Below, in pieces: positions 7,121-55,437 of a DNA stretch of 64,000 nucleotides. The stretch is from Candidatus Omnitrophota bacterium. GTDB lineage: Bacteria; Omnitrophota; Gorgyraeia; Zapsychrales; Fredricksoniimonadaceae. A model generated the notes under the pieces. That model was not told the origin of the DNA and did not search any database. It was given only the letters and a program-made list of their open reading frames with translations. Location of the stretch: NCBI GenBank assembly GCA_044225175.1, contig JBGAJA010000004.1:145631-209630 (forward strand). The letters run 5' to 3'. Within the stretch, counting starts at the first letter, position 1, and every line of letters starts with the position of its first letter. The position numbers and the translations under genes are program-made.

Positions 7121-7558
7121 TTAATTGATTCTTTCCCAATCAGCAATGCCACCTTGTATCAATAAAAAAGAAGGATGAATCTTTAATACCTTAATGTCCT
7201 TCACAGTCTTTAATAAATCGGGTTTTCTGATTAAAAGTTTATTTTGAAGATGCTCACGTTCGTATTCCGCCTGACCCATAGTGACATTAATAAGTGATAA
7301 ATGTTCAGTAAACTTCAAACAAATTTTAGAACGATTGAAAGAATAGTTACGGCTAACCGCATCATCACATACCCCATGCAAATAATTAGCAATAGCTTTT
7401 AAAGGATGGGCATGAGATTTAAAACGAATTAGTTGAGGATGGTTTTTATACCCTTTGGTATCTCCCATCAAAACTTTCTGCGCCAATAATCCTTCCCTCC
7501 ATAAAGCAACTAGGCCCTGAGGATCTAAGTATTGAGGATGTAGCGACCAAAGCCTCAT
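7121..7558 (-). CDS. putative pyrimidine-dimer DNA glycosylase (Pyr_excise family)
   Basis: The N-terminus MRLWSLHPQYLDPQGLVALWREGLLAQKVL matches my recollection of bacterial endonuclease-V-like PDG proteins. The assignment is from memory only. Confidence 0.5.
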   Translation of the reverse strand: MRLWSLHPQYLDPQGLVALWREGLLAQKVLMGDTKGYKNHPQLIRFKSHAHPLKAIANYLHGVCDDAVSRNYSFNRSKICLKFTEHLSLINVTMGQAEYEREHLQNKLLIRKPDLLKTVKDIKVLKIHPSFLLIQGGIADWERIN

Positions 7559-8085
7559 TTTTTGACAGGCGTTTGAACAGTAGATGAAGCATCGCTAACA
7601 TCTAAAACTTTGATCTTAAAGGTCAATTGCTTGCCCGCTAAAGGATGATTAAAATCCAAGACAACTTTATTACCTTTAATTTCTGTCACAACAGCAGGAA
7701 AATTCTCCCCATCTGGAGCTTGGGCTTCCAAAACTGTCCCAATTTTCAAATCTGCATTCTTAGGCATTTGGTCTTTAGAAAATTCTTTTAAGGCCTTGGG
7801 GTCAACTTCTCCGTAAGCATCTTTGGCTTCTACAACAATGACCTTCTCTTCTCCAACCTTCATTCCGTCAATGCCTTTTTCCAAGCCAGGGATAATAGTT
7901 TGATCACCAAATACAAATTCTAAAGGTGTTTTTCCAACGGAAGTTTCCAGCTGTTCATTATTAACCGTTAGAGTGTAATCCATTTTTATCTTCTTGCCTT
8001 TCACAACAACCTCATCTTTAGCAAAAGCAAAGCTTGTTAAACCCATCATCAAAACACCTATAACTAATATACGTAAATATTTCAT
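7555..8085 (-). CDS. FKBP-type peptidyl-prolyl cis-trans isomerase (SlyD/FkpA-like, secreted)
   Basis: The FKBP core is present (FVFGDQTIIPGLEKGIDGMKVGEEKVIVVEAKDAYG…LDFNHPLAGKQLTFKIKV). The real start is MKYLRILVIGVLMMGLTSFAFA (signal peptide, ATG at 8083-8085). The track's 113-aa N-extension overlaps the neighbouring gene and is rejected. Confidence 0.75.
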   Translation of the reverse strand: MKYLRILVIGVLMMGLTSFAFAKDEVVVKGKKIKMDYTLTVNNEQLETSVGKTPLEFVFGDQTIIPGLEKGIDGMKVGEEKVIVVEAKDAYGEVDPKALKEFSKDQMPKNADLKIGTVLEAQAPDGENFPAVVTEIKGNKVVLDFNHPLAGKQLTFKIKVLDVSDASSTVQTPVKK

Positions 8086-8104
8086 ACAACTTCCTTTCTT
8101 TGAG

Positions 8105-9160
8105 TTACTGACAAATTCCTTTAGAGCAATGTTGATCTGAAGGGCAAACATTTCGACAGGTCCCGCAATTATTAGCATCAATTTGGGTATTAGTACAAAT
8201 ATCATCACAGATGTCAAAACGACATTGACAGGCTCCTTTGATGCAGGCCATATTAACCGCACATACATTTCCGCATTCACCGCAATTATAATTATCTGAG
8301 GTAGTATTAATACATTTTTCCCCACAGGCTTTATAACCAGCATCTTCACAAAGACAATCACCCTTAAAACATGTTGAATTTGAAGGACAAACAATCCCAC
8401 AGTTTCCACAATTTTTGCGATCATTCTGCGTATCTACACACGTACCCTGACACGTTTCATGTGGACAAGTACATCTTCCATTGGAACAAATAGCTTGAGA
8501 AGGACAAGAATTGTCGCAACCCCCGCAATTATTTGAATCTGATAAACTGTTGATACACTCTCCATAACAACTGATATTATAATCTGAAGAACAGCACACT
8601 CCCTGAACACAACTTTGATCCTTAGCACATCCACCCTGACAATTTAAACACCCCTTCATCTTATCTGAGGGCCCGCAAATACCATTGCAACAAATATACT
8701 CATCACAACCCTCACCATTAGTCACACACATATCATCTATATCCAAACCCGAGACCTTTCCTCGATCATCAATATCTAATTTCTCTCCCACAACTCCATT
8801 AAAGCCCTTGGAATACAAAACATAAAATTTACCGTTGGCACTTTTTAAATAACCATATTCAGAACGCTGCGAGGACAGCGGATCATATAAGGGCCTGTCA
8901 ATTTTAGGGGTCTTAACTTTTGTAAGATATTGAGAGCCTACCGTACTACTTTTAGGTGGGTATACATGAGGTTGGGAAAATATGTAATAAGACGTTACAG
9001 CGGATTCCATGGTCTTTAATTCTCTAATGACTTGAGTTTGCTTTAAAGAATGGACCATGTGAAATGAACCTATTGCCACAGTTAAGATGGCTATACTGAA
9101 GACTCCCAACAATAATAATAGTTGATTTGAAGTAAATGCAGTTCGACAGGATCGATTCAT
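8105..9160 (-). CDS. secreted or membrane-anchored cysteine-rich repeat protein (tandem NNCGxC knot modules)
   Basis: It has an N-terminal hydrophobic anchor. The C-terminal half holds at least 4 tandem ~37-aa repeats: C[IV][DN]x3Dx2NCGxCx2[VS]Cx5Cx2GxCxC. Confidence 0.6.
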   Translation of the reverse strand: MNRSCRTAFTSNQLLLLLGVFSIAILTVAIGSFHMVHSLKQTQVIRELKTMESAVTSYYIFSQPHVYPPKSSTVGSQYLTKVKTPKIDRPLYDPLSSQRSEYGYLKSANGKFYVLYSKGFNGVVGEKLDIDDRGKVSGLDIDDMCVTNGEGCDEYICCNGICGPSDKMKGCLNCQGGCAKDQSCVQGVCCSSDYNISCYGECINSLSDSNNCGGCDNSCPSQAICSNGRCTCPHETCQGTCVDTQNDRKNCGNCGIVCPSNSTCFKGDCLCEDAGYKACGEKCINTTSDNYNCGECGNVCAVNMACIKGACQCRFDICDDICTNTQIDANNCGTCRNVCPSDQHCSKGICQ

Positions 9161-9219: not shown

Positions 9220-10032
9220 TTAACGCTTAATAAAAAACTTAACAACCCATGCAAAAATAAAACACAGGCCGCAAGCAATGACAATGCTGGCCCCGGAAGA
9301 AACTCCCAAGAAGTAAGAACAATAGACTCCAGCAATACAGCAGGCTACTGTCATAAGAACTGCAATAATCATAAGAGGCACTAAACGATCCGTTAAAAGT
9401 CTAGCAGCAGCGCTTGGCACAACCAAAAGCGCATTAGTCAAAATTGCCCCCGTTGCCTGGATGCCAGTGACTACACTTAAAGACAAGAGAATCAACAACA
9501 AAAGCCTCAAACTATCTACATTAATTCCAATAGTTTGAGCATAATCGCGATCCACACAAAATAATTTTAATTCTTTATGTAGCAATATGAGAGTCGTCAC
9601 AATCACAATTGTAAGAACAATGATTAGTCCTAAATCGCCATTAGTCACTCCAAGAATATTTCCAAAAAGCATCGATGACATGTCGCGATAAGATTTTGTG
9701 GAACTTATGATCAATACCCCAAGGGCAAACATCACCGTTGGGATCATGCCCGTTGCAGTATCTTCATAAATCTTGTCATCCTTAGACAAGAATCCAATTA
9801 ATAATGCCGTCGTAATCACAGCCACAAATGCGCCAAAGAATAAATTCAGACCCAACACAAAAGCAATGACAATACCGGGTAATGCACTATGAGTGAGGGC
9901 ATGTCCAATATTAGACATCCGTCGCAAGACCACATAAACACCAAGCAAAGAGCAACTAATCCCCACTAAGACTGAGGCCAGAAGCGCTCGTTGGATAAAA
10001 CCATATTGCAAAGGTTCTAACAGGCTGTGCAT
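9220..10032 (-). CDS. metal (Zn/Mn) ABC transporter permease (ZnuB/MntB/TroC family)
   Basis: It is a 270-aa 8-TM permease with the typical FecCD/ABC-3 fold. It is the last gene of the binding protein-ATPase-permease operon. Confidence 0.8.
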   Translation of the reverse strand: MHSLLEPLQYGFIQRALLASVLVGISCSLLGVYVVLRRMSNIGHALTHSALPGIVIAFVLGLNLFFGAFVAVITTALLIGFLSKDDKIYEDTATGMIPTVMFALGVLIISSTKSYRDMSSMLFGNILGVTNGDLGLIIVLTIVIVTTLILLHKELKLFCVDRDYAQTIGINVDSLRLLLLILLSLSVVTGIQATGAILTNALLVVPSAAARLLTDRLVPLMIIAVLMTVACCIAGVYCSYFLGVSSGASIVIACGLCFIFAWVVKFFIKR

Positions 10033-10736
10033 ATCTCTCCATCCTTAAGATAAATCGCTGAATCGTACAATCCTTCTTCTTGTTTAAAATAATGTGTGGC
10101 AACTAATGTGGTTTTACCTTGAGATTTTAATTGTGTGAGAACATTTTGTACAATCTGGCGGGTTTGAGAATCCACAGCATTCAACGGTTCATCCAGGAGC
10201 AATAGAGCTGCATCTTGAGCAATGGCCCTTGCAATCAACACCCTCTGCTGCTGACCTCCAGAAAGCTGAGCAATCTGACGATCGGCCAAATCTTCAATAC
10301 TTAAACTTTTTAAGGCGTCCCATGCTTTCTTATGATCATTTTTATTCACACGATTGATCCATCCTCGATAAACATATCTTCCCGTTAGGACTAAATCCAA
10401 AACACTCATAGGGAATTCCCAGTCTATGCTACTGCGCTGCGGCAGATAAACGACGTGTTGATGGCAGGAACCCAATGGCTGACCAAAAATCTCAACTTCT
10501 CCCGAAGATGGTTTGAGCAAATTACTGGCTACCTTAAACAAAGTCGACTTACCCGCCCCATTATGACCAACAACGGCAACCGATGAACCCCTTTGCACCG
10601 AAATCGAAACATCCTTCAAAGCTAGCCTATCATCTCCCGAATAATGAGCATTCACATGGATCATTGATAAAGCCGGCGCTTTGGCATCTGGACGTTTATG
10701 GGAATGACTGCAGTAAGAAATAAACAATCGACTCAT
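10017..10736 (-). CDS. metal ABC transporter ATP-binding protein (ZnuC/MntA-like)
   Basis: It has a Walker A motif (GHNGAGKST), the signature LSGGQQQR and a Walker B motif LLLLDEP. An ATGA overlap with the upstream binding-protein stop supports translational coupling. Confidence 0.85.
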   Translation of the reverse strand: MSRLFISYCSHSHKRPDAKAPALSMIHVNAHYSGDDRLALKDVSISVQRGSSVAVVGHNGAGKSTLFKVASNLLKPSSGEVEIFGQPLGSCHQHVVYLPQRSSIDWEFPMSVLDLVLTGRYVYRGWINRVNKNDHKKAWDALKSLSIEDLADRQIAQLSGGQQQRVLIARAIAQDAALLLLDEPLNAVDSQTRQIVQNVLTQLKSQGKTTLVATHYFKQEEGLYDSAIYLKDGEICTAC

Positions 10737-11668
10737 GATTGCATCTCTCCATTATCCTTAAGCATATTGACTATGACTTGAGCATTATATTTCATCATTT
10801 TAATGTATGTATCTGCCTGACTGCCCTGCGGTCCTAATGCATCCGTATACAAAGCTGGAGCGAGTTTGATATGAGCTTCATCTGCCAGTGAGGCAATCAT
10901 CTTTGAATTATGAATGTTTTCCGCAAATATAACTTTAACATTGGCTTTTTTGATTTTAAAAAGCAACTCTGCCATTTTTTTGGCTGAGGAGTCTTCAGCT
11001 TCCGTTGTCACAGAGTCAAATGCAGCACCCACAACTTCAAACTGATAACGCTCACAAAAATATCCAAGACTATTGTGGTTAGTGACAATCTTTCTTTGAG
11101 GTCTCGCAATGAAGGCCACTTTTTTCATGATCCAATTGTCTAATTCTTTGAGTTCAACAATATAAGCCATAGTACGACTCTCATATGCTTTGGCGTGATG
11201 AGGGTCCATGGACTTTAATGTGTTATTAATCATATTGACCATTCCAACGACATAACGTATGTTTCCCCAAACATGCGGATCAACATCTTCATAGCGATTA
11301 TCACCACTTTTAAATATGGTCAGAGGACTTTCAACAACTGATTTGGCCAGAACTATTCGACTAGCTTTGGAGTTTGCAGCAGTATAAAGTTTATTCATCC
11401 AATGTTCTAAACCAAAACCATTCTCAAAAATTACATCTGCATGGGCTAAAGCCACACTATCAGACGCTGAGGGTTCGAACGTATGAGCGTCACTATCTGG
11501 CCCCACTAGTGTTGTAAGCTCCACTTGATCGGAGGCGATATTTTTAATCCAATCAGCAATAATGCTGGTTGTCGCAACAACCTTAAGCTTCTTATCTGAC
11601 TCTGCCCGAGTCACAGATGGACATATCAAGCACAGACTAATGAGCAGAACAAACCAACACGTCTTCAT
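10733..11668 (-). CDS. metal-binding lipoprotein / substrate-binding protein, cluster A-I (TroA/ZnuA/MntC family)
   Basis: It has a signal peptide (VTRA|ES). Motifs DPHVWGNIRYV and HNSLGYF are typical of Zn/Mn binding proteins. Confidence 0.8.
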   Translation of the reverse strand: MKTCWFVLLISLCLICPSVTRAESDKKLKVVATTSIIADWIKNIASDQVELTTLVGPDSDAHTFEPSASDSVALAHADVIFENGFGLEHWMNKLYTAANSKASRIVLAKSVVESPLTIFKSGDNRYEDVDPHVWGNIRYVVGMVNMINNTLKSMDPHHAKAYESRTMAYIVELKELDNWIMKKVAFIARPQRKIVTNHNSLGYFCERYQFEVVGAAFDSVTTEAEDSSAKKMAELLFKIKKANVKVIFAENIHNSKMIASLADEAHIKLAPALYTDALGPQGSQADTYIKMMKYNAQVIVNMLKDNGEMQS

Positions 11669-42770: not shown

Positions 42771-44963
42771 TCAATTCAAGCTATTACGTCTCAATCTCAG
42801 GGCATTTCCTATCACGGAAACTGAGCTTACGCTCATGGCTGCCCCTGCGATCATAGGGCTTAGGAGGATTCCGATGAAGGGGTATAGGATTCCGGCGGCG
42901 ATGGGGACGCCTAGGATATTGTAGATAAAGGCGAAAAATAAATTTTGTTTGATATTGGTCATAACGGCTCTTGAGAGTTTTAGAGCTTTGACGATTCCAT
43001 TAAGATCGCCTTTGACTAAGGTGATTCCTGCACTTTCAATTGCCACATCTGTTCCTGTTCCCATAGCAACCCCTACATCCGCTTGCGCAAGTGCTGGGGC
43101 ATCATTAATGCCGTCGCCTGCCATTAACACAATTGCACCCTTCGCTTTAAATTCTTTAACAATCTCCTGTTTGGCTTGGGGTTCTAACCCGCCACGTACA
43201 TCATCGATGTTCAATTCCCTTGCAATAACCTCAGCGGTCTTTTGATTGTCCCCGGTTAGCATCACAACCTTGATTCCCATTTCATGAAGAGCCTTGATTG
43301 CTTCTGGCGTTGATTTCTTAATTGGATCTGAAATCCCAAGAATACCCATTACCTTTTGATCAGCGGCTAACCAAATCACCGTCTGTGCCTTCTCCTGCAA
43401 GCCTTCAGCTTTGATTCTTAAATCTTCTGGAATTCCAATCTTTTGATCTTCAATAAATTTCTTCTTGCCTACGATGATTGTTTGCCCGTTGATCCTGCCC
43501 TTGATGCCACCACCGGTGATTGATTCAAAATTCTCTACCTTCTGTAAATTGATGTTTCTTGTCTTTGCATAATCAATGAGCGCACGAGCTAGCGGATGTT
43601 CACTGCTTTGCTCAAGCGATGCAGCCATAAAAATGAGCTTGCCTTCATCTTCACCGAAATTTGAAATACACGCCGTTACCTTAGGTCTTCCTTCAGTCAA
43701 TGTTCCCGTTTTATCAGTAAGAACATACGTCACCTTCTGAGCTTTCTCAATCGCCTGTGCATTCTTAATCAAAATCCCTGCTTGCGCGCCACGGCCAACA
43801 CCAACCATGATCGACATGGGTGTAGCTAGCCCCAAGGCACATGGGCAGGCGATGATGAGAACAGCAATGGCATTCACAATCGCATACGCCAATCTTGGCT
43901 CTGGCCCGATAGATGACCAAACAAAAAATGTCAGAACAGAAATCAACATGACAATGGGAACAAAATAACCTGACACTTGATCTGCAAGCTTTTGAATAGG
44001 TGCTTGGCTGCGCTGAGCATCAGACACCATATGCACAATTTGAGACAGAAGAGTTTCTGCTCCCACCTTTTCTGTTTTCATCACAAAACTACCGGTTTGA
44101 TTGACGGTTGCCCCAATCACACGATCCCCCGCATATTTCTCAACAGGGATAGGTTCACCTGAAATCATAGATTCATCAATACTGCTATGCCCCTCTGTAA
44201 TAATCCCATCTAACGGAACTTTTTCTCCTGGACGAACACGAAGCAAATCTCCTTTTTGAACAAGCTCGATTGCCACTTCTTCTTCAACACCATTGACAAT
44301 ACGATGCGCATTCTTAGCCGCCAATCCCAACAGAGCTTTAATCGCTTCTCCTGTTTGAGCACGAGCCTTAGCTTCTAATAATTGCCCCAAAAGAATGAGT
44401 ACGGTAATCACCGCAGCAGCTTCAAAATATAGATCAATAGCGCCCATTTTCTTCAATGATTCAGGAAAGATGCCCGGCAGCAAGGTAGCAACCGTGCTGT
44501 AGCCGTAGGCTGCTCCTACACCAAGCGCTATCAAGGTGAACATATTTAAAGATTTATTAATGACTGATTTGTAACCCTTAACAAAAAATATGCCGCCTGC
44601 CCACAGAACAACAGGTGTGGCTAGAATCAATTGGATGATTGCTAATACGTCATGAGAGATGAATGATTGAAGATTGATTGCTGGAATCATATCAGCCACC
44701 ACTAACAACACCAGAGGTGTTGTTAGTGATAGGCCAATCCAAAACTTCAACGATAGAGAATCAATTTCATGTTTGTCGTCATTACTTTCAGCTGTTGGAC
44801 TCACAGGTTCCAGATGCATGCCGCATTTAGGGCAATCTCCCGGGTGATCCTGACGAATCTCTGGATGCATGGGGCAGGTATAGATAGCGCCTGCAGCTGC
44901 AACAGCTTTAACTTGAGGCTTTTCATGCCCATGCGAGCAGCACGAATGTTGATGTTCTTCCAT
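42771..44963 (-). CDS. copA: Cu(I)-translocating P1B-type ATPase with an N-terminal HMBD (CPMHP…CPxCGM) metal-binding domain
   Basis: It has TM CPC ([13 protein letters not shown]), DKTGTLT, a TGD hinge and GDGINDAP. The N-terminus has CCSHGHE and [26 protein letters not shown]. Confidence 0.9.
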
Positions 44964-44982
44964 GCTGAGCCTCCTTTAAAGA

Positions 44983-45426
44983 TTAATGATGTGCTGAGTG
45001 ATCAACAGTTGGCTTATCTGCTGCTGGAGCTTTATCATCGTCGTCATTATCCATATCAGGCTTACCCATTCCTTTGCTCATTTTTTGACACATGGCACAC
45101 ATCTTGCTTTCTTCTGCTTTAATTTCTACTTCCTTAACCAAATTAAGATTGGCATCATACTTAGACAATTTATGACCACTCAAAACGATAACACCACCAT
45201 CGTTGGAAGCAACCATAGAAGTCTTATTCATCATTGCATTCATCATCATACCCTTGGACATCATGCCACCTTTGTCACCCATCATGCCCATCATCCCACC
45301 TTTACCCTCCATCATTCCTGCCTTGTCTTGCATCATTTCCTTACCCTTATCCTCCATCTGAGCTAATGCGAATCCCGAAACAATTAAAACAACAACTGCT
45401 GCCATTATTGCGATACTGTTTTTCAT
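44983..45426 (-). CDS. periplasmic methionine-rich Cu-binding protein
   Basis: It has a signal peptide (ALA|QM), Met-rich MxxM/GMM repeats, then CAMC and a C-terminal HSAHH. Confidence 0.55.
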   Translation of the reverse strand: MKNSIAIMAAVVVLIVSGFALAQMEDKGKEMMQDKAGMMEGKGGMMGMMGDKGGMMSKGMMMNAMMNKTSMVASNDGGVIVLSGHKLSKYDANLNLVKEVEIKAEESKMCAMCQKMSKGMGKPDMDNDDDDKAPAADKPTVDHSAHH

Positions 45427-45480
45427 AGACTTCTCCTTTTTTGTTACTAGAATTTATCGATATAACCCTGCAACTAACTT

Positions 45481-45497
45481 ATTTTGTACGGGCGGGG
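45481..45497. other. GC-rich hairpin GGCGGGG-taa-CCCCGCC between the YHS and Met-rich genes
   Basis: It is a perfect 7-bp GC stem with a U-tract only on the plus strand. It may be an antisense terminator or an RNA processing site. Confidence 0.3.
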
Positions 45498-45514
45498 TAA
45501 CCCCGCCCCTACGA

Positions 45515-45793
45515 TTATTTTTTCTCTGCTGCTACTTCATCTTCAGCGATCTTGCTGAATTTCTCTGGGCTATTCTTGAAATCTTTCTTACACATGGGGC
45601 AGCAAAGATTATAAATCTTGCCATTATATTCATACTGCACACCCTTGCCCATTGTACCAACCTTCTCCCCACTGACTGGGCATAATTTATTTCCTACCTC
45701 AACTAACTTCGCTGCCTGTGGCGCTGACTGAGCGAAAGATACCCCTGATACCAATAAAAGAACCCCTAGTGTTAATGCTGTGATCGTTTTCAT
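45515..45793 (-). CDS. periplasmic YHS-domain protein
   Basis: It has a signal peptide (SFA|QS) and CPVSGEKV…YEYNGKIYNLCCPMCKKDFKNSPEKF. Confidence 0.6.
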   Translation of the reverse strand: MKTITALTLGVLLLVSGVSFAQSAPQAAKLVEVGNKLCPVSGEKVGTMGKGVQYEYNGKIYNLCCPMCKKDFKNSPEKFSKIAEDEVAAEKK

Positions 45794-45809
45794 TTTGATT
45801 CTCCTTTGT

Positions 45810-48800
45810 TTATTGTTTTCCGCCCGAGGCGGATCCGCCTAAGGCGGAAGATTTCCACATAAAATAAATCGCTGGATAAACCAGAAGCTCCAGGATAAAT
45901 GAGGTTCCAAGCCCTCCTACCATCGGCGCAGCAATACGTTTCATGACGTCCGAACCTGAACCTACAGCAAACATGATAGGCAAAAGCCCAATCATCGCAG
46001 CCATCACCGTCATCATCTTAGGACGAATACGACGAACAGCACCGTGAAGAATTGCTTCTCTTAAGTCTTCCTTGTTGTTCATCTTGCCCTTTGCTACAGC
46101 ATCATTATACGCCATATCCAGGAACAATAACATTAAGACGCCTGTCTCAGCATCTAAGCCCATGAGCGCAATCATTCCCACCCACACAGCAATCGATACA
46201 TTGTATCCAAGTGCCCACAAGAACCAGACAGCACCAATCAATGAGAATGGTACCGCTAAAAGCACGATCGATGTTTTAACAATTGAACGCGTACTGAAAT
46301 ACAAGAGCAAGGCGATTAGAAACAACGTCAAAGGAAGAACAATCTTCAATCGATCCTGCACCCTTAACATATTTTCATACTGACCGCTAAACAATAAACT
46401 GTAGCCTTGAGGTGTCTTATAGTTAGTGCTGATAGCTTCCTTGGCATGCTTCACATAGGAACCAATATCAACACCTGCTACATCGACGTAGACATAGCCG
46501 GCCAGCATTCCATTTTCATTACGAAGCATGGCTGGACCTGTGCGAAGCACTAGATCAGCAACTTGCCCTAAAGCTACCTGCGCCCCAGAAGGCGTTGCAA
46601 TCAATACATGCTCCAACTGAGATAAATCACTTCGAAGTTCTCTTGGGTAACGAACGCTCACTCCAAAGCGTGCACGCCCCTCCACCGTTGTTGTGATATT
46701 CTCTCCTCCAACGGCAGCTAAGATGGTTTCTTGAGCTTGCGCGACTGTTAATCCATAACGAGCTAATGCCTCTCGCTTTAGATCAAAATCAACATAGTAT
46801 CCGCCTGCTGTTCGTTCAGCGAAGACACTGCGGGTTCCTGGAATATCCTTAAGAATCCCTTCAAGATGCAAACCTATCTCTTCGATTCTTTTGATATCTT
46901 CTCCCAAAATCTTAATTCCAACGGGAGTTCTGATTCCCGTTGAAAGCATATCAATACGATTCTTAATGGGCATGGTCCACGCATTGGTTGTTCCTGGAAT
47001 CTTGAGCGCCTCATCCATCTCTTGAATCAAAGCCTCATGGGAAATGGTCTTACCATTAATCTTTCGCCATTGAGAGGCAGGTTTAAGCATCACTGTTGTT
47101 TCCATCATAGAAAACGGCGCTGGGTCTGTGGAAGACTCCATTCGTCCAGCCTTTCCCCAGACACGCTCAACTTCAGGAAAACTTTTTAAGATATGATCCT
47201 GTGTCTGTAGCAGCTTGGTTGCCTCAGTCACTGAGATACCAGGCATGGTCGTTGGCATATAGAGGATATCCCCTTCCCACAATGGCGGCATAAACTCACT
47301 ACCTAATTTCAGATACACCGGCACCGTCGTAGCCACCAGTAAGATAGCCGTGATAATGGTTGCCTTGCTATGCTTTAAGACAAACTTGCAAGCAGGTTCA
47401 TAAACGGCAAACATCAGTTTACTGACCGGATGTTTCTCTTCTGGGTAATATTTACCAACCAGCAAAGTGTTAACGATCTTTGACTTATAGGGCTTAACCC
47501 TTAAGAACAACATGCGAAGCGCAGGGTTAAAGGTGACCACCAAAAACGCAGCGAAGATCATGGCAAACGTCTTCGACCATGCGAGTGGTTTAAACAAACG
47601 TCCTTCTTGATCGATCAGAGTAAAGATTGGCAAGAATGAAACAGCGATCACCAGAAGTGAGAAGAATACCGAAGGGCCAACTTCTTTAAGCGCGCGGATA
47701 CACACTGCCTGATAATTTTCCTTCCTCCCTGAACTCTCCCATTCCTCCAAACGCTTATAGACGTTCTCCATCTGAACGATGGCGCCATCGACCAAAACCC
47801 CAATAGAAATAGCAATCCCTGCTAGCGACATAATATTGGATGTTAATTTCAAACCAAGCAATGGAATGAATGCTAGAAGCACAGCAATTGGAATCGTAAT
47901 GATTGGAATAAAGGCTGATGGGAAATGCCAGAGAAACAACATGATAACTAGAGAAACAACAATCATTTCTTCAATCAGCTGTTTCTTGAGATGATTGATG
48001 GAGTTTAGAATCAGCTGTGAACGATCATAGGTGGTGACAACCTCGACCCCTTCAGGAAGTGATGATTTAATCTCCTGGAGTCTTGCCTTCACGCGATCAA
48101 TCACCTGCAGGGCATTTTCACCAAATCGCATAACGATTGTGCCGCCTACCGCATCGCCCTGGCCATCTAGATCAGCAATTCCACGGCGAATATCTGGCCC
48201 TGTGGCCACATGGGCCACAGCCTTAAGCAAGACCGGCGTCCCATTCACTGCAGTACCAACAACTGTATTCTCAATGTCTTCAATGGACTTTAAATACCCG
48301 TGAGAGCGCACCATGTATTCAGCACCGCTAAATTCAAGCAACCTTCCACCAGCTTCCTGATTGCTTTCACGTACGGCATTGATCACATTGTTAATGGGAA
48401 GCTTAAAACCTATCAATTTCTGAGGATCAACCGTGATCTGATACTGCTTGGTAAATCCTCCAATGGAAGCAACCTCAGCTACCCCTGGCACACTTTGCAA
48501 TTGATACTTCAAATTCCAATCTTGAAATGTACGAAGCTCCTCTAAGGAATGCTTGCCTGAATGATCAACCAATGCATATTGATACACCCACCCTACTCCT
48601 GTGGCATCGGGCCCCAGCTCAGTCCTCACCCCCTCAGGCAGACGAGCTGTAATTTTGTTTAAATATTCCAGCACCCGGCTTCTGGCCCAATACATATCTG
48701 TGCCATCTTTAAAAATGACATAAACATAGGAAAATCCAAAGTCAGAGAACCCGCGAATCGCTTTTACTCCTGGGGCGCCTAGTAATGATGAAACAATCGG

Positions 48801-49022
48801 ATAGGTTACCTGATCTTCAATCACATCCGGACTTCTGTCCCAACGGGAATAGATGATCACCTGTGTATCTGAAAGGTCAGGAATGGCATCCAAGGAAATG
48901 TTCTTCATGGACCAAATGGCCCACACTAATGAACAGGCGACCAAAAGAATAACCAAGAATTTATTAGCCACTGAAAAGCCAATCAACTTCTCAATCCAAG
49001 TTTCTCTAACTTGATTATTCAT
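45810..49022 (-). CDS. cusA: heavy-metal efflux RND transporter, CusA/CzcA family
   Basis: The 1070-aa product has 12 TM helices and two large periplasmic loops. The N-terminus is typical HME-RND (IEKLIGFSVANKFLVILLVAC). It overlaps cusB by 8 nt. Confidence 0.9.
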   Translation of the reverse strand: MNNQVRETWIEKLIGFSVANKFLVILLVACSLVWAIWSMKNISLDAIPDLSDTQVIIYSRWDRSPDVIEDQVTYPIVSSLLGAPGVKAIRGFSDFGFSYVYVIFKDGTDMYWARSRVLEYLNKITARLPEGVRTELGPDATGVGWVYQYALVDHSGKHSLEELRTFQDWNLKYQLQSVPGVAEVASIGGFTKQYQITVDPQKLIGFKLPINNVINAVRESNQEAGGRLLEFSGAEYMVRSHGYLKSIEDIENTVVGTAVNGTPVLLKAVAHVATGPDIRRGIADLDGQGDAVGGTIVMRFGENALQVIDRVKARLQEIKSSLPEGVEVVTTYDRSQLILNSINHLKKQLIEEMIVVSLVIMLFLWHFPSAFIPIITIPIAVLLAFIPLLGLKLTSNIMSLAGIAISIGVLVDGAIVQMENVYKRLEEWESSGRKENYQAVCIRALKEVGPSVFFSLLVIAVSFLPIFTLIDQEGRLFKPLAWSKTFAMIFAAFLVVTFNPALRMLFLRVKPYKSKIVNTLLVGKYYPEEKHPVSKLMFAVYEPACKFVLKHSKATIITAILLVATTVPVYLKLGSEFMPPLWEGDILYMPTTMPGISVTEATKLLQTQDHILKSFPEVERVWGKAGRMESSTDPAPFSMMETTVMLKPASQWRKINGKTISHEALIQEMDEALKIPGTTNAWTMPIKNRIDMLSTGIRTPVGIKILGEDIKRIEEIGLHLEGILKDIPGTRSVFAERTAGGYYVDFDLKREALARYGLTVAQAQETILAAVGGENITTTVEGRARFGVSVRYPRELRSDLSQLEHVLIATPSGAQVALGQVADLVLRTGPAMLRNENGMLAGYVYVDVAGVDIGSYVKHAKEAISTNYKTPQGYSLLFSGQYENMLRVQDRLKIVLPLTLFLIALLLYFSTRSIVKTSIVLLAVPFSLIGAVWFLWALGYNVSIAVWVGMIALMGLDAETGVLMLLFLDMAYNDAVAKGKMNNKEDLREAILHGAVRRIRPKMMTVMAAMIGLLPIMFAVGSGSDVMKRIAAPMVGGLGTSFILELLVYPAIYFMWKSSALGGSASGGKQ

Positions 49023-49841
49023 GTGAAGTCTCCCCAGCTAACGCTGCTTGAAGACGGCTTTCGGAATCTAGTAAGAAGTTGGCTCCTGTAGCTATTTTCT
49101 GTCCTTCTTGTAAGCCTTCTTTAATTTGAATCCAGCCTTGGGATTCTAAGCCAGTCTTGACCTGTTGAGGATGAAAGTTATTGTCTTTTTCTACTATAAA
49201 AACAACAGCCCTTGTTCCTGTCATCATGACGCTATCTCGAGGGACAACTAGTGTGGGTGATGACTCAACAGGAATGGTGACATGGACATACATATTACCT
49301 CGTAATTTCATGTCTACCCCCCTGACATCAATACGGACATTGACCGTACGTGTTATAGAATCCACCTTCCAATCTATATAACGAACAATGCCGTGAATCG
49401 ATTCTCCAAAAGTTGGAATCTCAATAGTGGCCTTTTGCCCCAACTGAATCAATGGTATATCGATCTCAGAAATTTGAGCATAAATGGGAAATGTTCTAGC
49501 TGATTTGGAAGCTTGAAAATTAGGATCCACAATTCCAGGAGCACGGATTGTTTTAACTAAGGCTTTCTTTTCTACCATCAGAGATTTTAATCCCATCAAT
49601 TGTTGCTTCGGCTCTTTGATTGTCACCGGCACATAACCATCAACCTTCTGAGCCAATTGATCTCGATGGGCTGCCTCTGACTTTTCTTCCTTCTTAACTA
49701 AATTCATCCCACAAATAGGACATTGCCCTGGCCTATCTGAAGTGTAAGTCGGATGCATGGGACAATACCAAATTTCTTTGGCATATACAGATACGCTTGT
49801 GAAGATTACGGCTAATACAACTAATATGATTTCTTTCATAA
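49015..49841 (-). CDS. cusB: efflux RND periplasmic adaptor (CusB-like) with an N-terminal HMBD (CPMHP…CPICGM)
   Basis: The true start is MKEIILVVLAVIFTSVSVYA (ATG at 49839-49841). It has YCPMHPTYTSDRPGQCPICGMNL, then a membrane-fusion beta-barrel/lipoyl fold. The track's 52-aa extension is rejected. Confidence 0.8.
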
Positions 49842-49930
49842 TGATCCCCTTATATTGATGATTTGAACTTCCCCTAACCCCCACTTTGAAAAAAGAGGGG
49901 TTAGGAGAGTTCCTAATATTTTTATTGAAA

Positions 49931-50302
49931 TTAAATACGAATGGAACGGGCTTTGATGTACAGCGGAATAAGCGTATAAGGCCCAGGAGGACCATTGATG
50001 TAGAGACTTTTTAAAGTCAAACGATTTGCAGGTAAAAGTTGAATTAAAGCAAATGCAATAAAAGCTAATCCAATAGGCCCTATCCAATGAAAGATTTGAT
50101 TCTTAGCCAATTCCATTGGACTTGCTTTACTAAAACAGCATTCTTTGATGGGGGAAGCTTTTCCATCTTTAGAGGCGCAATGAGAACATATTGGTTTAGA
50201 GGCTTGAATTTGGTTCTTAATTACACAACAGCACAATACATTGGCGATGATAAAAATCAAGCCGGTTAGAACCAAAAATGAGTTTTTTAAAGGTTGCTTC
50301 AT
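49931..50302 (-). CDS. small 2-TM membrane protein with a Cys-rich loop (CCC…CSHC…ECC), putative metal-binding
   Basis: It reads MKQPLKNSFLVLTGLIFIIANVLCCCVIKNQIQASKPICSHCASKDGKASPIKECCF, then a second TM helix. It lies directly upstream of cusBA on the same strand. Confidence 0.35.
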   Translation of the reverse strand: MKQPLKNSFLVLTGLIFIIANVLCCCVIKNQIQASKPICSHCASKDGKASPIKECCFSKASPMELAKNQIFHWIGPIGLAFIAFALIQLLPANRLTLKSLYINGPPGPYTLIPLYIKARSIRI

Positions 50303-50349
50303 ATATCAATTATACCATTCAAATTATCTATTGTCAGACTGGCTTTAGC

Positions 50350-52947
50350 TTAGAAATTCGCATCATTCGAATAATTATCATAATCCGATGCTCTACACAT
50401 TCCATCACTATCACCTGAAGACATATCCGTACACATACCCCCCTCTTTCACTGGAGGGCCTGGATCATAGATACAAGTCAAGCATTTCCAATCAGTCCAA
50501 TGGTCACCAGCCCATGTATTCTCAGGGCATGCATTCATACAATGATTATCATCCACAACTGGATCATAATCACATTTTTCACACTTGGCTTGTTGACAAA
50601 AATCAGCCCTAGTCCCATCTAAAGTTCTACAGCAAGAGTATTTTTCAGGATCTTGGGCAAAATATTGTATACAGTGATTATCATGGCATTCATATATATA
50701 ACAAGGATCCGCAGGGCAATCGGTAGCGACATTACATGTATCTCCAGTATCAGACCCCGTTCCTGTACCTGTTCCTGATCCAGTGGCACTTCCTGTAGAG
50801 GAACCTGTGGAACTACCGGTGGATGAACCTGTCGAACTTCCCGTCGAAGAACCAGTTGAGCTTCCGGTCGATGATCCAGTTGAACTTCCCGTAGATGAGC
50901 CTGTTGAGCTTCCCGTAGATGATCCAGTTGAACTTCCGGTAGATGATCCTGTTGAACTTCCCGTAGATGAGCCTGTTGAACTTCCGGTAGATGATCCAGT
51001 TGAACTTCCCGTAGATGAGCCTGTTGAACTTCCGGTAGATGATCCAGTTGAACTTCCCGTAGATGAGCCTGTTGAGCTTCCAGTAGATGAGCCAGTTGAA
51101 CTTCCCGTAGATGAGCCTGTTGAGCTTCCGGTCGATGATCCAGTTGAACTTCCCGTAGATGAGCCTGTTGAGCTTCCTGTAGATGATCCAGTTGAGCTTC
51201 CAGTAGATGAGCCAGTTGAACTTCCCGTAGATGAGCCTGTTGAGCTTCCTGTAGATGATCCAGTTGAGCTTCCCGTAGATGATCCAGTTGAACTTCCGGT
51301 AGATGATCCAGTCGAGCTTCCCGTAGATGATCCAGTCGAACTTCCAGTCGATGATCCAGTTGAACTTCCGGTAGATGATCCAGTTGAACTTCCGGTAGAT
51401 GATCCAGTTGAACTTCCGGTAGATGATCCAGTTGAACTTCCAGTCGAGGAACCAGTCGAACTTCCAGTCGATGATCCTGTCGCAGTTCCTGAACCACAAG
51501 GTGTGCATTGATGAAGAACACAGCAGAAGTCATCTGCACAGTCTCCTTCATCTATACAAGATTCCTCACCATCACCAGTTGAGCCGCTGTCAGACATATT
51601 TCCCGTGGAACTACCGGTAGATGATCCTGTCGAACTTCCCGTCGAGGAACCAGTTGAGCTGCCTGTAGAGGAACCCGTCGAACTTCCCGTTGAAGAGCCG
51701 GTTGAGCTACCCGTAGATGATCCGGTAGAACTTCCTGTCGAAGATCCAGTTGAACTTCCGGTGGATGATCCTGTCGAACTACCAGTCGATGATCCTGTTG
51801 AACTACCAGTCGATGATCCTGTCGAACTTCCCGTCGAGGAACCAGTTGAACTACCTGTAGAAGAACCGGTTGAACTTCCTGTTGAGGAACCGGTTGAGCT
51901 TCCAGTGGCTGAACCGTCTGAATCATCCGTAGAACTGCCCGTTGATGATCCCGTTGAATCCCCCGTAGACGTACCCGTTGATGATCCCGTCGAACTTCCC
52001 GTCGAGGAACCAGTTGAACTGCCAGTAGATGAACCAGTTGAACTTCCCGTAGATGATCCTGTTGAGCTACCCGTAGATGATCCCGTTGAACTTCCCGTGG
52101 ATGATCCGGTTGAACTTCCCGTAGATGATCCCGTTGAACTTCCCGTAGATGAACCTGTTGAACTTCCTGTGGGTGAACCTGTTGAACTTCCTGTGGAGGA
52201 ACCTGTTGATGTACCAGTCGAACTTCCCGTAGATGATCCCGTTGAACTTCCGGTCGATGATCCTGTTGAACTTCCGGTCGATGATCCTGTCGAACTACCT
52301 GTCGATGAACCTGTTGAGCTACCCGTAGATGATCCCGTTGAACTTCCAGTTGATGAACCAGTCGAACTTCCCGTCGAGGAACCAGTCGAACTTCCAGTTC
52401 CTGTTCCAGTACCGGTTCCAGTTCCCCCTCCACTATCAGCTGGCATTCCACACGTATAAAGAAGTGAGGTAAACGATCCTGGGCAAGTCGCACCAGGCAC
52501 CCCTCCTCGACAATAAGGATTGGGCGGGATAGCAGCATCATTCGTATAATAGATTGGGATATTTCCAGGATTAAGCGGTTTATCCAAATCCACAATCATG
52601 GTAAAGCCTCCACCACCCTGTCTTTGAGCAAAACAAACATTGCTATTGGAACTGTTGGTTGGACAGCATCTATAAACCAAACCATTATTTGGCGTAATAT
52701 TTAAATTAAGGCTCTTGTTAATGCCCACAACATCTGCCCCACCTCCGGAAAAAGGATAATATTTTCCATGGGCCTGTTTATAGTTAAGCTGTGAGTTTTT
52801 AATGGCAATCAGATTACGCAGGGCATCTGTAGAAACGGATCGTTCATAAGTTTTGGTGAAATTGACTAAAGCGGAAGAAGCTAAAATACCTAAAACCAAC
52901 ATTGAAACAAGGACTTCAATTGTAGTAAAGGAAGGTGATTTTCTCAT
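50350..52947 (-). CDS. giant type IV pilin/pseudopilin-like protein with two (SSTG)n mucin-like repeat blocks and Cys-knot modules (865 aa)
   Basis: The N-terminus is MRKSPS|FTTIEVLVSMLVLGILASSALVNF, a prepilin-type methylation motif with Glu at +5. An ~140-aa Cys-containing head follows (YRCCPTNSS, VCFAQRQGGGG, PYCRGG…CPG…YTCGMPA). Next come (SSTG)n, the CIDEGDCADDFCCVLHQCTPCGSG knot, a second (SSTG)n and a Cys-rich C-terminal domain. Confidence 0.6.
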   Translation of the reverse strand: MRKSPSFTTIEVLVSMLVLGILASSALVNFTKTYERSVSTDALRNLIAIKNSQLNYKQAHGKYYPFSGGGADVVGINKSLNLNITPNNGLVYRCCPTNSSNSNVCFAQRQGGGGFTMIVDLDKPLNPGNIPIYYTNDAAIPPNPYCRGGVPGATCPGSFTSLLYTCGMPADSGGGTGTGTGTGTGSSTGSSTGSSTGSSTGSSTGSSTGSSTGSSTGSSTGSSTGSSTGSSTGSSTGSSTGSSTGTSTGSSTGSSTGSPTGSSTGSSTGSSTGSSTGSSTGSSTGSSTGSSTGSSTGSSTGSSTGSSTGSSTGSSTGSSTGSSTGTSTGDSTGSSTGSSTDDSDGSATGSSTGSSTGSSTGSSTGSSTGSSTGSSTGSSTGSSTGSSTGSSTGSSTGSSTGSSTGSSTGSSTGSSTGSSTGSSTGSSTGSSTGSSTGSSTGSSTGSSTGNMSDSGSTGDGEESCIDEGDCADDFCCVLHQCTPCGSGTATGSSTGSSTGSSTGSSTGSSTGSSTGSSTGSSTGSSTGSSTGSSTGSSTGSSTGSSTGSSTGSSTGSSTGSSTGSSTGSSTGSSTGSSTGSSTGSSTGSSTGSSTGSSTGSSTGSSTGSSTGSSTGSSTGSSTGSSTGSSTGSSTGSSTGSSTGSSTGSSTGSSTGSSTGSSTGSSTGSSTGSSTGSSTGSSTGSSTGSSTGSSTGSSTGSSTGSSTGSSTGSSTGSSTGSATGSGTGTGTGSDTGDTCNVATDCPADPCYIYECHDNHCIQYFAQDPEKYSCCRTLDGTRADFCQQAKCEKCDYDPVVDDNHCMNACPENTWAGDHWTDWKCLTCIYDPGPPVKEGGMCTDMSSGDSDGMCRASDYDNYSNDANF
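50765..51490. repeat. imperfect 24-nt tandem repeat array encoding (SSTG)n, block 2 of the 865-aa gene
   Basis: The unit is agtagatgagcctgttgaacttcc / ggtagatgatccagttgaacttcc, alternating about 30 times. Confidence 0.8.
51600..52428. repeat. imperfect 12/24-nt tandem repeat array encoding (SSTG)n, block 1 of the 865-aa gene
   Basis: The plus strand reads gatgatcc[ag]gttgaacttcc[cg]gta… with periodicity. Several frames on both strands stay open across it. Confidence 0.8.
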
Positions 52948-52955
52948 GTTTTAAA

Positions 52956-55316
52956 TTATAAACAATAGTTACAACCACTTACACTTGGACAAGAGGGAGC
53001 AGGATCATCCCCCCCTTCAATTAACGTACAGTCACCCCAACCAGCTGCACCAGAGCAACATTTATACACACCTTCATCAACATCAATACACGTAGTTACA
53101 GGTAAATCGCAATTAGGGTCTGCAGTATGTACACAAGATGTTATACAGCATAACTCTGATATGTGAGGAATAATAGCAAAAAAGGCACAATCTCCGGATC
53201 CGCTTCCAGTCCCAGTCCCCGTTCCCGAACCACTTCCGGTCCCTGTACCTGTTCCCGTACCACTACCTGATCCTGTGCCAGTGCCTGTCCCATCTCCTAC
53301 GTTTTGGCACTTGCCTGCATTGCAATACTGAGTTGCTGCATCACAACAGAAATCTGACGTGGTCGCACAACTGTTCGTAGAGCAGCCTCCACAATTATTT
53401 ATGTCTGTATCAGGATTAATATACATACACGTCTGATCAGGCTGACAACAGCCACCTGAACATTCATAACCAGGGTCTCCACAAACTGCTGGATCATCAC
53501 CGGTCCCCGTTCCTGAGCCTGTTCCCGTCCCGCTTCCTCCATCCCAAGGATCATTTTTACAGTGTCCTGTAATAGCCATATTTTTATTAATTTCAATAAA
53601 TATCAAAGGACTTGTGCTTACGTAATCCCCCGTCCATGTAACGAACCTAGCCCATGGTTTAGCCAGGACTGCAATAATATCTCCAAAATTATAGGATGAC
53701 TGTCCATGACTACTATTGCCATTGACAGCTATAACAGAAGCAAAATCACAATTATCATTATTGACAATCAAAGAATAATTGCTTCCAGTAGCAGTACCTG
53801 TCGAACTCCCCGTCGAGGAACCAGTCGAACTGCCTGTAGATGAGCCCGTTGAACTGCCTGTCGATGATCCTGTTGAACTGCCAGTAGATGATCCTGTTGA
53901 GCTTCCGGTAGATGAACCTGTTGAGCTTCCCGTAGATGACCCAGTTGAACTACCTGTCGATGATCCTGTTGAACTGCCAGTAGATGATCCTGTTGAGCTT
54001 CCGGTAGATGACCCAGTTGAACTACCTGTCGATGATCCTGTCGAACTTCCTGTAGAAGATCCGGTGGCGCTGCCTGTGGATGAACCTGTACCTGATCCGC
54101 AAACAGGGGTACAGAAATGCATGTTACAACAATAATCGTCGTCACAATCATCATCGTCTTCGCAAAACAAATTAGTGTTTGTGGAACCACTTTCATTGTG
54201 ATTTCCAGTTGCTGATCCTGTAGAACTTCCAGTCGAAGACCCTGTTGAACTGCCTGTAGATGACCCGGTTGAGCTTCCCGTAGATGACCCAGTTGAACTG
54301 CCTGTAGATGACCCGGTTGAGCTTCCCGTAGATGACCCAGTTGAACTGCCTGTAGATGACCCGGTTGAGCTTCCCGTAGATGACCCAGTCGAACTGCCTG
54401 TAGATGACCCGGTTGAGCTTCCCGTAGATGACCCAGTTGAACTGCCTGTAGATGACCCGGTTGAGCTTCCCGTAGATGACCCGGTTGAGCTTCCCGTAGA
54501 TGACCCGGTTGAGCTCCCCGTAGATGACCCAGTCGAACTGCCTGTAGATGACCCAGTTGAACTGCCTGTAGATGACCCAGTTGAACTGCCTGTAGATGAC
54601 CCGGTTGAGCTTCCCGTAGATGACCCAGTTGAACTGCCTGTAGATGAGCCGGTGGAACTTCCAGTGGATGAGCCTGTAGAACTTCCGGTTGATGACCCTG
54701 TCGAACTACCCGTCGAAGATCCTGTTGAACTGCCTGTGGATGAACCAGTCGAACTACCTGTAGATGACCCGGTTGAACTTCCCGTTCCAGTTCCAGTCCC
54801 TGTTCCACCCCCTCCAGCAGGCATTCCACAAGTATAGACAGAGGTAATATAATTCCCAGGACAAACCGCCCCACTCTGTCCCCCTCGGCAATAGGGATTA
54901 TGAGTCCCATCAAAATACACAGGCACATTTCCAGGATTAAGAGGAGCATCCAGGTCCAAAATCATACTAAAAGCCCCAACTCCTTGCCTCTGGGCGTAAC
55001 ACACATTATTATTAGCACTGTTCGAGGGACAACATTTATATTTTAATCCATTACTGGGTGTAATGTTTAATCCAAGGTTTTTATTAATATCCGCGATACT
55101 CGCATCTGCTGATCCAGAAGAAGAATAATATTTTCCATGAGACTGCAAATAGCTAAGCTGAGCGCTCTTAATGGCCATTAAATTATGCATAGCATCACGG
55201 CCAACAGTTTTTTCAAATGTTCTTAGGAAGTTAGGAAGGGCAATAGAGACCAAAATCCCTAAAATAAGGATTGTTATGAGGATTTCAATGATGGTAAAAG
55301 AAGGTGTTCTTTTCAT
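52956..55316 (-). CDS. giant type IV pilin/pseudopilin-like protein with (SSTG)n repeats, a Cys knot and an NNCGxC-type Cys-rich C-terminus (786 aa)
   Basis: The N-terminus is MKRTPS|FTIIEILITILILGILVSIALPNF. The head has YKCCPSNS, VCYAQRQG and PYCRGG…CPG…YTCGMPA, paralogous to the downstream gene. It continues with (SSTG)n, CEDDDDCDDDYCCNMHFCTPVCGSG, (SSTG)n and a ~110-aa domain. The tail is CGDPGYECSGGCCQPDQTCMYINPDTDINNCGGCSTNSC…GKCQ, then a Gly/Thr linker and a final Cys-rich segment. Confidence 0.6.
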   Translation of the reverse strand: MKRTPSFTIIEILITILILGILVSIALPNFLRTFEKTVGRDAMHNLMAIKSAQLSYLQSHGKYYSSSGSADASIADINKNLGLNITPSNGLKYKCCPSNSANNNVCYAQRQGVGAFSMILDLDAPLNPGNVPVYFDGTHNPYCRGGQSGAVCPGNYITSVYTCGMPAGGGGTGTGTGTGSSTGSSTGSSTGSSTGSSTGSSTGSSTGSSTGSSTGSSTGSSTGSSTGSSTGSSTGSSTGSSTGSSTGSSTGSSTGSSTGSSTGSSTGSSTGSSTGSSTGSSTGSSTGSSTGSSTGSSTGSSTGSSTGSSTGSSTGSSTGSSTGSSTGSSTGSSTGSSTGSSTGSSTGSSTGSSTGSSTGSSTGSSTGSATGNHNESGSTNTNLFCEDDDDCDDDYCCNMHFCTPVCGSGTGSSTGSATGSSTGSSTGSSTGSSTGSSTGSSTGSSTGSSTGSSTGSSTGSSTGSSTGSSTGSSTGSSTGSSTGSSTGSSTGSSTGSSTGSSTGSSTGTATGSNYSLIVNNDNCDFASVIAVNGNSSHGQSSYNFGDIIAVLAKPWARFVTWTGDYVSTSPLIFIEINKNMAITGHCKNDPWDGGSGTGTGSGTGTGDDPAVCGDPGYECSGGCCQPDQTCMYINPDTDINNCGGCSTNSCATTSDFCCDAATQYCNAGKCQNVGDGTGTGTGSGSGTGTGTGTGSGSGTGTGTGSGSGDCAFFAIIPHISELCCITSCVHTADPNCDLPVTTCIDVDEGVYKCCSGAAGWGDCTLIEGGDDPAPSCPSVSGCNYCL
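53785..54097. repeat. 24-nt tandem repeat array encoding (SSTG)n, block 2 of the 786-aa gene
   Basis: It has the same periodicity and about 13 units. Confidence 0.75.
54205..54815. repeat. 24-nt tandem repeat array encoding (SSTG)n, block 1 of the 786-aa gene
   Basis: The unit is cgtagatgacccagttgaactgcc / tgtagatgacccggttgagcttcc. Codon choice differs from the repeats of the neighbouring gene. Confidence 0.8.
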
Positions 55317-55437
55317 AATTCTTATTTAAAGTATACCCTAAATTTTCAAATTAGACATATAAAATACTGCCTTGCTTGGGGATTTAATTTTCTTTTCTTG
55401 TTTTTTGAAATTAAGTTTTTATAATTAAAATCACTCT

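Follow-up and report, generated by a model that had tools for sequence, protein, structure and literature searches.

Modular pilins consist of a small pilin module at the N-terminus and, C-terminal to it, an 'effector' module with no specific tie to pili. One study counted over 1,200 such proteins in 264 architectures and predicted their exposure at the filament tip (Raynaud et al. 2021, PMC8179133). PilB and PilC of Streptococcus sanguinis, with a vWA and a lectin module respectively, are examples of the type and are predicted to bind ligands there (PMC8179133). Pilins carry class III leaders that end in Gly or Ala and precede a hydrophobic stretch of 20–25 residues, and, in many cases though not in all, a Glu at position +5 (Glu5), which is salt-bridged to the N-terminal amine of the next subunit above; the subunit that caps the tip complex is one without Glu5 (PMC10191384). 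Type IVa pili occur commonly in Omnitrophota, where a role in attaching to host cells has been proposed for them (PMC10066038). Here we describe an open reading frame at positions 8105–9160 (minus strand) of a 64,000-nucleotide stretch of contig JBGAJA010000004.1 from a Candidatus Omnitrophota bacterium, this whole stretch being referred to below as the window. With high confidence, drawn from sequence profiles and a structural model, we read its product as a modular pilin-like protein, in which a pilin-like module (residues 1–152) is joined to a run of Stig1-type cysteine repeats (residues 198–351).

The frame is intact, ends in a stop codon at 8105–8107 and encodes 351 residues, of which 43 are Cys; all but one of these (42 of 43) lie past residue 144. 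The protein begins with a short, basic leader ending in Ala (MNRSCRTA, residues 1–8; 9137–9160, minus strand, as are all parts of this gene), followed by a hydrophobic α1-N segment (FTSNQLLLLLGVFSIAILTVAIGSF, residues 9–33; 9062–9136) with Phe at +1, Thr at +2 and Gln at +5. A short hydrophilic leader that ends in Ala and runs into a hydrophobic stretch is what class III leaders show, and MNRSCRTA looks like such a prepilin leader on this basis. The description 'secreted protein' given in a first-pass annotation of the stretch was therefore imprecise: the N-terminus is indeed basic and then hydrophobic, but what the hydrophobic part forms is a helix of pilin type rather than an ordinary signal peptide. 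The globular part of the pilin-like (GspG-like pseudopilin) module follows (residues 34–152; 8705–9061) and closes with the motif DDMCVTNGEGC. Beyond it lies a stretch with nine Cys (residues 153–197; 8570–8704), which is either a Cys-rich linker or a degenerate fifth Stig1-like unit in which GCLNC replaces NCGxC, and then come four Stig1-type repeats: repeat 1 (residues 198–236; 8453–8569), repeat 2 (237–278; 8327–8452), repeat 3 (279–317; 8210–8326) and repeat 4 (318–351; 8108–8209), the last without the eighth Cys.

The pilin-like nature of the N-terminal half had been missed in the first-pass annotation. Only three database proteins cover this half: an identical entry, an orthologue (P0002; identity 51–52%) and a more distant protein (P0097). 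A word-indexed search with the N-domain alignment returned nothing, and the family was recovered by an exhaustive search of 1.84 billion representative sequences using a profile built from the protein and P0002 only. This search yielded 142 relatives, 47 of them with E ≤ 1e-10 and the best at ~1e-31. Most are ~150 residues long and have a canonical prepilin start such as KGFTILELLVVL, with (G/A)FTxxE motifs. When 81 relatives were scanned against Pfam, N_methyl was found in 69 and T2SSG in 52, and relatives also match TIGR01710 (GspG) and PF08334. Run against the PDB, the family profile finds chains of GspG, geopilin and PilA/PilE and aligns with GspG sequences over positions 7–123; the hydrophobic segment of the protein itself aligns position by position with the α1 helix of the GFTxxE pilins.

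An AlphaFold2 model of the full protein (mean predicted local distance difference test score, pLDDT, 88.4) points the same way. It contains a helix over residues 11–61 together with a small sheet (pLDDT >90), has its weakest stretch at residues 150–180 (pLDDT 49–64), and builds the repeats as small β-hairpins (pLDDT 93–97). The best PDB matches returned by Foldseek were the GspG proteins EpsG (4lw9) and PulG (5o2y/1t92), at probabilities of 0.85–1.0 and target TM-scores of 0.52–0.55; they cover residues ~30–150, and their E-values are only 0.02–0.2. By profile and by model, residues 1–152 are thus homologous to a family of ~150-residue GspG-like pseudopilins and type IV pilins.

In the C-terminal half, all the sequences that had been quoted as four tandem repeats are present in the intact frame. 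They begin at residues 198, 237, 279 and 318 and are alike in their Cys framework, C-x3-C-x9-C-G-x-C-x3-C-x5-C-x4-C-x-C with an NCGxC core, at 44–50% identity between repeats. We scored them against a profile that was seeded with these repeats and rebuilt from 745 units, which came from 118 other proteins. All four repeats reached 38–43 bits (41.5, 42.9, 43.1 and 38.0 for repeats 1 to 4), with independent E-values from 7e-11 to 2e-12 (5e-12 for repeat 1) computed over the 913 stop-to-stop open reading frames of at least 30 residues in the window, and the periodicity is therefore well above chance. The regularity that had been claimed is accordingly significant, although its period is 39–42 residues instead of the ~37 first given. 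The degenerate unit ahead of repeat 1 (residues ~153–197) gave no significant match to the repeat hidden Markov models (HMMs). At the DNA level Tandem Repeats Finder detected no tandem repeat in the gene, a result that rules out a recent tandem duplication and places the duplication of the repeats far back.

The repeats belong to a family that has a name. Pfam PF04885 (Stig1) scores 62.6 bits over four stretches of the protein, against a gathering score of 24.1, with its best stretch at residues 311–351, spanning repeat 4; NCBIfam NF041328, 'MXAN_6577-like cysteine-rich protein', scores 112.8 against a cut-off of 100. The C-terminal half is thus above both curated thresholds, and the unit CxxxC...(N)NCGxC...C...C...CxC is common to this protein and hundreds of bacterial proteins, although it spans only positions ~43–83 of the 85-position, plant-derived PF04885 model. 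The resemblance to Stig1 proposed in the first-pass annotation is borne out by these scores, whereas that to Dickkopf is not, since a Pfam scan at E ≤ 10 gave only Stig1 and a sub-threshold Fer4_3. Nor is the module uncommon in bacteria, as had been supposed: a collection of 5.8 billion proteins holds 457 homologues, nearly all bacterial and nearly all with PF04885. Novelty had been claimed with the proviso that assignment of the Cys spacing to a well-characterized bacterial domain would overturn it, and the spacing is indeed that of a family on record, which has NF041328 as a bacterial model of its own. Going by these matches, then, the repeats are an already catalogued family and not a new type of bacterial cysteine knot.

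Named Stig1 homologues are mostly from Myxococcota or 'Deltaproteobacteria' (Polyangiaceae, Myxococcales, Vulgatibacter), and a scan of genome contigs found four unrelated Stig1 loci, including ones in Nannocystaceae and in a Dadabacteria metagenome-assembled genome. The N-terminal parts of most bacterial carriers are signal peptides or cytochrome-like, lectin, pectate lyase or kinase domains; among 120 listed homologues, pilin-like N-termini occur in P0002 and P0097 only. A search of PDB sequences with the Cys-rich half found no solved Stig1 structure, only sub-threshold matches to RnfC and nanobodies, and Foldseek gave the Cys-rich part a low-probability resemblance to the cysteine-rich domains of tumour necrosis factor receptors (TNFR) and to integrin EGF repeats; a viral fold library held no significant match for the protein. 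We found no function for bacterial MXAN_6577-like proteins, and a literature search returned no paper mentioning MXAN_6577.

A plant member of the wider family is STIG1, the stigma-specific protein of tomato and tobacco, a secreted ligand of LePRK receptor kinases that binds the LePRK1/2 ectodomains and phosphatidylinositol 3-phosphate, PI(3)P (PMC6275014 and its reference 72). The likeness lies in a homologous cysteine-rich domain and in STIG1 being an extracellular ligand-binding protein. However, STIG1 is a small, soluble, single-domain secreted peptide, whereas here a tandem array is joined to a pilin module in a bacterium, and carrying the binding specificity of STIG1 over to this protein is not justified. 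A more general reading of the repeats, as a putative extracytoplasmic, disulfide-stabilized binding module, is reasonable, and the disulfide-stabilized part of it draws on the even number of Cys (42) that follow the leader and on the confident modelling of the repeats as β-hairpins.

The combination of pilin module and repeats recurs among the relatives. Of 144 family members, 34 are longer than 200 residues and 18 bear at least one Stig1-type repeat directly after the DDxCVTNGxGC motif that ends the pilin module. Pfam Stig1 is above its cut-off in P0137, P0142 and P0247 and just under it in P0171 (20.3 against 24.1 bits), and other members bear fn3 arrays. P0097, a pilin of the canonical GFTLLELL type that bears about seven Stig1 repeats, is encoded at a locus with a Peptidase_A24 prepilin peptidase (PilD) on one side, small pilin-like (minor pilin) genes on the other, and PilM downstream. 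The stand-alone member P0134 sits behind the E and F genes, filling the pseudopilin ('G') position of a cluster like those of type II secretion systems (T2SS), in the order secretin, response regulator, MshEN-T2SSE, T2SSF, P0134, three small genes, a Laminin_G_3 protein and a PilM-like gene; downstream of P0132 are genes with GFTLIE and AFTILE N-termini, one of them fused to Laminin_G_3. The genomic context of P0097, P0134 and P0132 supports a filament role for the family. The Stig1-bearing relatives P0123 and P0247 are orphan genes.

Two further observations on these relatives may be recorded. P0133 (1,327 residues) joins a pilin module to three Stig1-type repeats, fn3 and a near-threshold Hint domain of the intein/Hedgehog type (31.2 against 32.1 bits), an unusual domain set for a pilin-like protein. 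Furthermore, in pilus-like operons of relatives, a gene for a Laminin_G_3 protein follows small minor-pilin-like genes (locus L011, 9809–10966; locus L010, 10932–13260), and the 373-residue product in L010 has a clear prepilin motif at its start; these Laminin_G_3 products are more modular pilins, with a lectin-type module.

Positions around the leader cleavage site were compared across 114 family members. At −1, 61 members have Gly, 46 Ala and 7 Ser, so that the Ala of our protein is normal for the family, and the +5 residue is Glu in 111, Gln in two (this protein and P0002) and Asp in one. A modular pilin without Glu5 would fit the cap position most simply, judging from its sequence and from the cap subunit described above. 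A parallel is offered by GspK/PilK-type minor pilins, which lack Glu5, carry an extra domain and have been proposed as the subunit with which assembly starts at the tip; GspK differs in that its extra domain is inserted within the pilin fold and in that it works with GspI and GspJ, whereas our protein has no detected sequence similarity to GspK and no adjacent I/J partners. GspG, the best structural match over residues ~30–150, is likewise not an equivalent: scores lie far under the equivalog cut-off (45 for P0134 against 88.85, with no match for our protein), and Gln5, a 200-residue C-terminal extension and the lack of a surrounding secretion operon set our protein apart. Compared with the modular pilins of S. 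sanguinis, it shares the general plan and differs in having a Stig1 run as the grafted module and in missing Glu5. The set of Raynaud et al. was defined via IPR012902, and our protein would probably fail models of the IPR012902/PF07963 type; Stig1 was not found in those supplementary files of PMC8179133 that were searched, and a literature search gave no paper mentioning both Stig1 and pilins.

Upstream of the gene, on the same strand, lie a ZnuA, ABC ATPase and ABC-3 permease set, a TamB-like gene and MarC. Downstream, starting 19 nt past the stop codon, is a gene for an FKBP-type peptidyl-prolyl isomerase with a signal peptide (7555–8085, minus strand), which has its own AAGGAAG ribosome-binding site; beyond it are genes for a pyrimidine-dimer glycosylase, a CBS protein and a porin. 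An overlapping frame of 289 residues in another frame (7555–8424, minus strand) was set aside as a mechanical extension of the FKBP gene, the real gene being 7555–8085. The locus of the orthologue P0002 (L001) runs MarC, TamB, orthologue, FKBP, CBS, Porin_5 and Pst, so that the FKBP adjacency is kept and the Znu adjacency is not, TamB directly preceding the orthologue. No terminator-like site was found between our gene and the FKBP gene, and the two are possibly co-transcribed, given that their adjacency is conserved in the orthologous locus; the two products may also be functionally linked.

The PEPCK gene of the window shares 73–79% identity with proteins that all bear the name Candidatus Omnitrophica, in keeping with an Omnitrophota source. 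The window and L001 are collinear, apart from two insertions in the window. The first (~9220–11668) places the ZnuABC-type transporter between TamB and our gene; the second (~15100–45800, ~30 kb), between Nramp and a CusA-like efflux pump, contains sensor kinases, a Na/H exchanger, a UmuC-like polymerase, a copper P-type ATPase and others.

We propose that the basic leader and hydrophobic helix would insert the protein in the inner membrane with its C-terminal part in the periplasm, where its 42 extracytoplasmic Cys could form about 21 disulfides and turn the repeats into a stiff rod of small β-hairpin knots. A prepilin peptidase would cut after Ala8, and the pilin module would dock in a type IV filament, either a pilus or a T2SS-like pseudopilus, with the Stig1 rod shown as a ligand-binding tip. 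The cap, whose subunit would be the first assembled, is the most likely position, because Gln5 cannot form the salt bridge from Glu5 to the N-terminal amine of the subunit above; a plausible job in an Omnitrophota cell would be attachment to a surface or a partner cell. For this mechanism as a whole, with the pilin module in a filament and the Stig1 rod displayed, we see the chances as evenly balanced, and several observations weigh against it. Gln13 (+5) stands in place of Glu5, and P0121, a member of the 90% cluster of P0002, retains KAFTLVEL, so that Gln5 is not an old, fixed feature; it could equally reflect loss of assembly competence. The N-terminal half has no match to PF07963, PF08334 or TIGR02532, even at E ≤ 0.1, and because it matches no curated pilin model the protein is classed as a pilin homologue and not as a demonstrated pilin. 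The model has a predicted TM-score (pTM) of 0.47, so the placement of its domains relative to each other is not fixed by it. Finally, the surroundings of the gene lack a prepilin peptidase, a platform protein and an assembly ATPase, and no filament machinery genes adjoin its orthologue in L001; no prepilin peptidase gene was found within the 64-kb window, whose pilus-related content is limited to a pair of PilT-like ATPases and two large pilin-like genes, 42–47 kb away.

The leading alternative is a degenerate pilin that works outside filaments, as a bitopic inner-membrane protein held by its α1-N anchor (cleaved or not), with a periplasmic Stig1 rod serving, for instance, as a scaffold or as a binding partner of envelope proteins. 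Such a reading, which we consider possible though somewhat doubtful, draws on the replacement of Glu5 and the lack of any curated prepilin match, on the orphan state of the gene (and of the genes for P0123 and P0247), and on neighbours that are envelope genes in both genomes, TamB upstream and the periplasmic FKBP downstream. Orphan pilin genes are common, however, and cap subunits naturally lack Glu5; the rest of the module is well conserved, as judged by the identity of ~52% to the orthologue and family E-values down to ~1e-31, and the related P0097 sits within a pilus operon. The version implied by the first-pass annotation, a soluble secreted protein whose Sec signal peptide is removed and whose Cys-knot repeats would serve as a free ligand outside the cell, as plant STIG1 does (PMC6275014), is compatible with basic residues followed by a hydrophobic stretch, and plant STIG1 is itself a secreted LePRK ligand. 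We think it very unlikely, as that stretch opens a continuous 50-residue helix aligned with pilin α1, residues 34–152 are a conserved pilin domain and not a spacer, and a diderm cell would still require an export route through the outer membrane. Most improbable is a zinc- or iron-sulfur-binding Cys-rich protein working with the adjacent ZnuABC-type transporter. The gene does follow the ABC-3 permease gene on the same strand, at a distance of 59 nt, and there are weak matches to Fer4_3 (E 0.18) and to a ferredoxin-like motif of RnfC (E 0.08). Both matches are far under threshold, though, and the iron-sulfur or ferredoxin reading was rejected with Fer4_3 at only E 0.18; an accessory role in zinc uptake was discarded too, the Znu genes being missing from the orthologous locus. 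Moreover, the Cys residues follow the Stig1-family pattern, the compact β-hairpin repeats are modelled at high confidence, and the domain, coming after a pilin module, would be extracytoplasmic.

As it stands, the protein is a neat but unexceptional case of a modular pilin, and it reveals no new fold, system or principle. It does allow the gene to be annotated in concrete terms, as coding for a modular pilin-like protein whose stalk is of Stig1 type, in place of the probable pipeline label 'MXAN_6577-like cysteine-rich protein'; it would add Stig1 repeats to the list of modules grafted on pilins; and it is a candidate attachment factor in Omnitrophota, an uncultured phylum in which type IV pili are proposed to serve host contact. 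A bolder proposal is that pilin–Stig1 fusions are an undescribed class of filament-cap adhesins, in which a Glu5-less module sets a rigid disulfide rod at the tip for recognition of hosts or partners by ultra-small Omnitrophota. We regard this as speculative and rather unlikely; in plants, the Stig1 fold is employed as a receptor ligand.

Elsewhere in the window, two tandem paralogous genes on the minus strand encode giant pilin-like proteins of 865 residues (50350–52947) and 786 residues (52956–55316). Both score below threshold for N_methyl and match N-terminal parts of PilA and GspG models. Each has an N-terminal pilin module of ~170 residues, followed by hundreds of (GSST)n residues with small Cys-rich knots between them. 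Their leaders end in Ser (PS before FTIIE in one and before FTTIE in the other), against the Gly or Ala that has been called invariable. Two adjacent genes on the plus strand, transcribed divergently from this giant pilin-like pair, encode T2SSE-family ATPases of PilT/PilU-like size (55438–56589, 383 residues; 56592–57635, 347 residues); the same two ATPase genes lie ~8 kb from the orthologue of our gene in L001.

The first-pass annotation had placed a single copy of the Stig1-type module at the very end of the 786-residue protein and took it as a sign of a module common to several surface proteins of the organism. The segment in question, with the core NNCGGC, is at residues 624–671 (53304–53447, minus strand), 115 residues follow it, and its significance is marginal. 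Pfam Stig1 makes no call on the 786-residue protein, and neither repeat HMM detects the segment in the full-length protein. Scored on its own with composition correction switched off, it reaches 28.1 bits, above the 24.5 bits of the best of 2,000 shuffled sequences; with the correction it scores only 8.9 bits, and its best domain, at 5.6 bits, is reached by 41 of 2,000 shuffles. Its Cys spacing is off, with an extra CC and a nine-residue insertion, and no Stig1-like unit was found in the 865-residue paralogue. The segment may be a degenerate Stig1-like unit. The idea of a module common to several surface proteins rests on this one marginal, mis-located segment, which is poor evidence for it. 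A short acidic Cys knot amid the GSST linkers, distinct from Stig1, is present in both proteins (residues ~389–410 of the 786-residue and ~463–484 of the 865-residue protein; CEDDDDCDDDYCCNMHFCTPVC and CIDEGDCADDFCCVLHQCTPC).

The DNA encoding the (GSST)n residues consists of 24-nt tandem arrays (50776–52395 and 53797–54782; Tandem Repeats Finder scores up to 1308), which are of a kind prone to assembly collapse and length variation. The G+C fraction is 0.43–0.46 over positions 44000–56000, compared with 0.35–0.41 over most of the window, and within this high-GC stretch lie the giant pilin-like pair as well as copper/heavy-metal efflux genes. Part of the rise is due to the arrays that code for GSST, and horizontal acquisition is possible as well.

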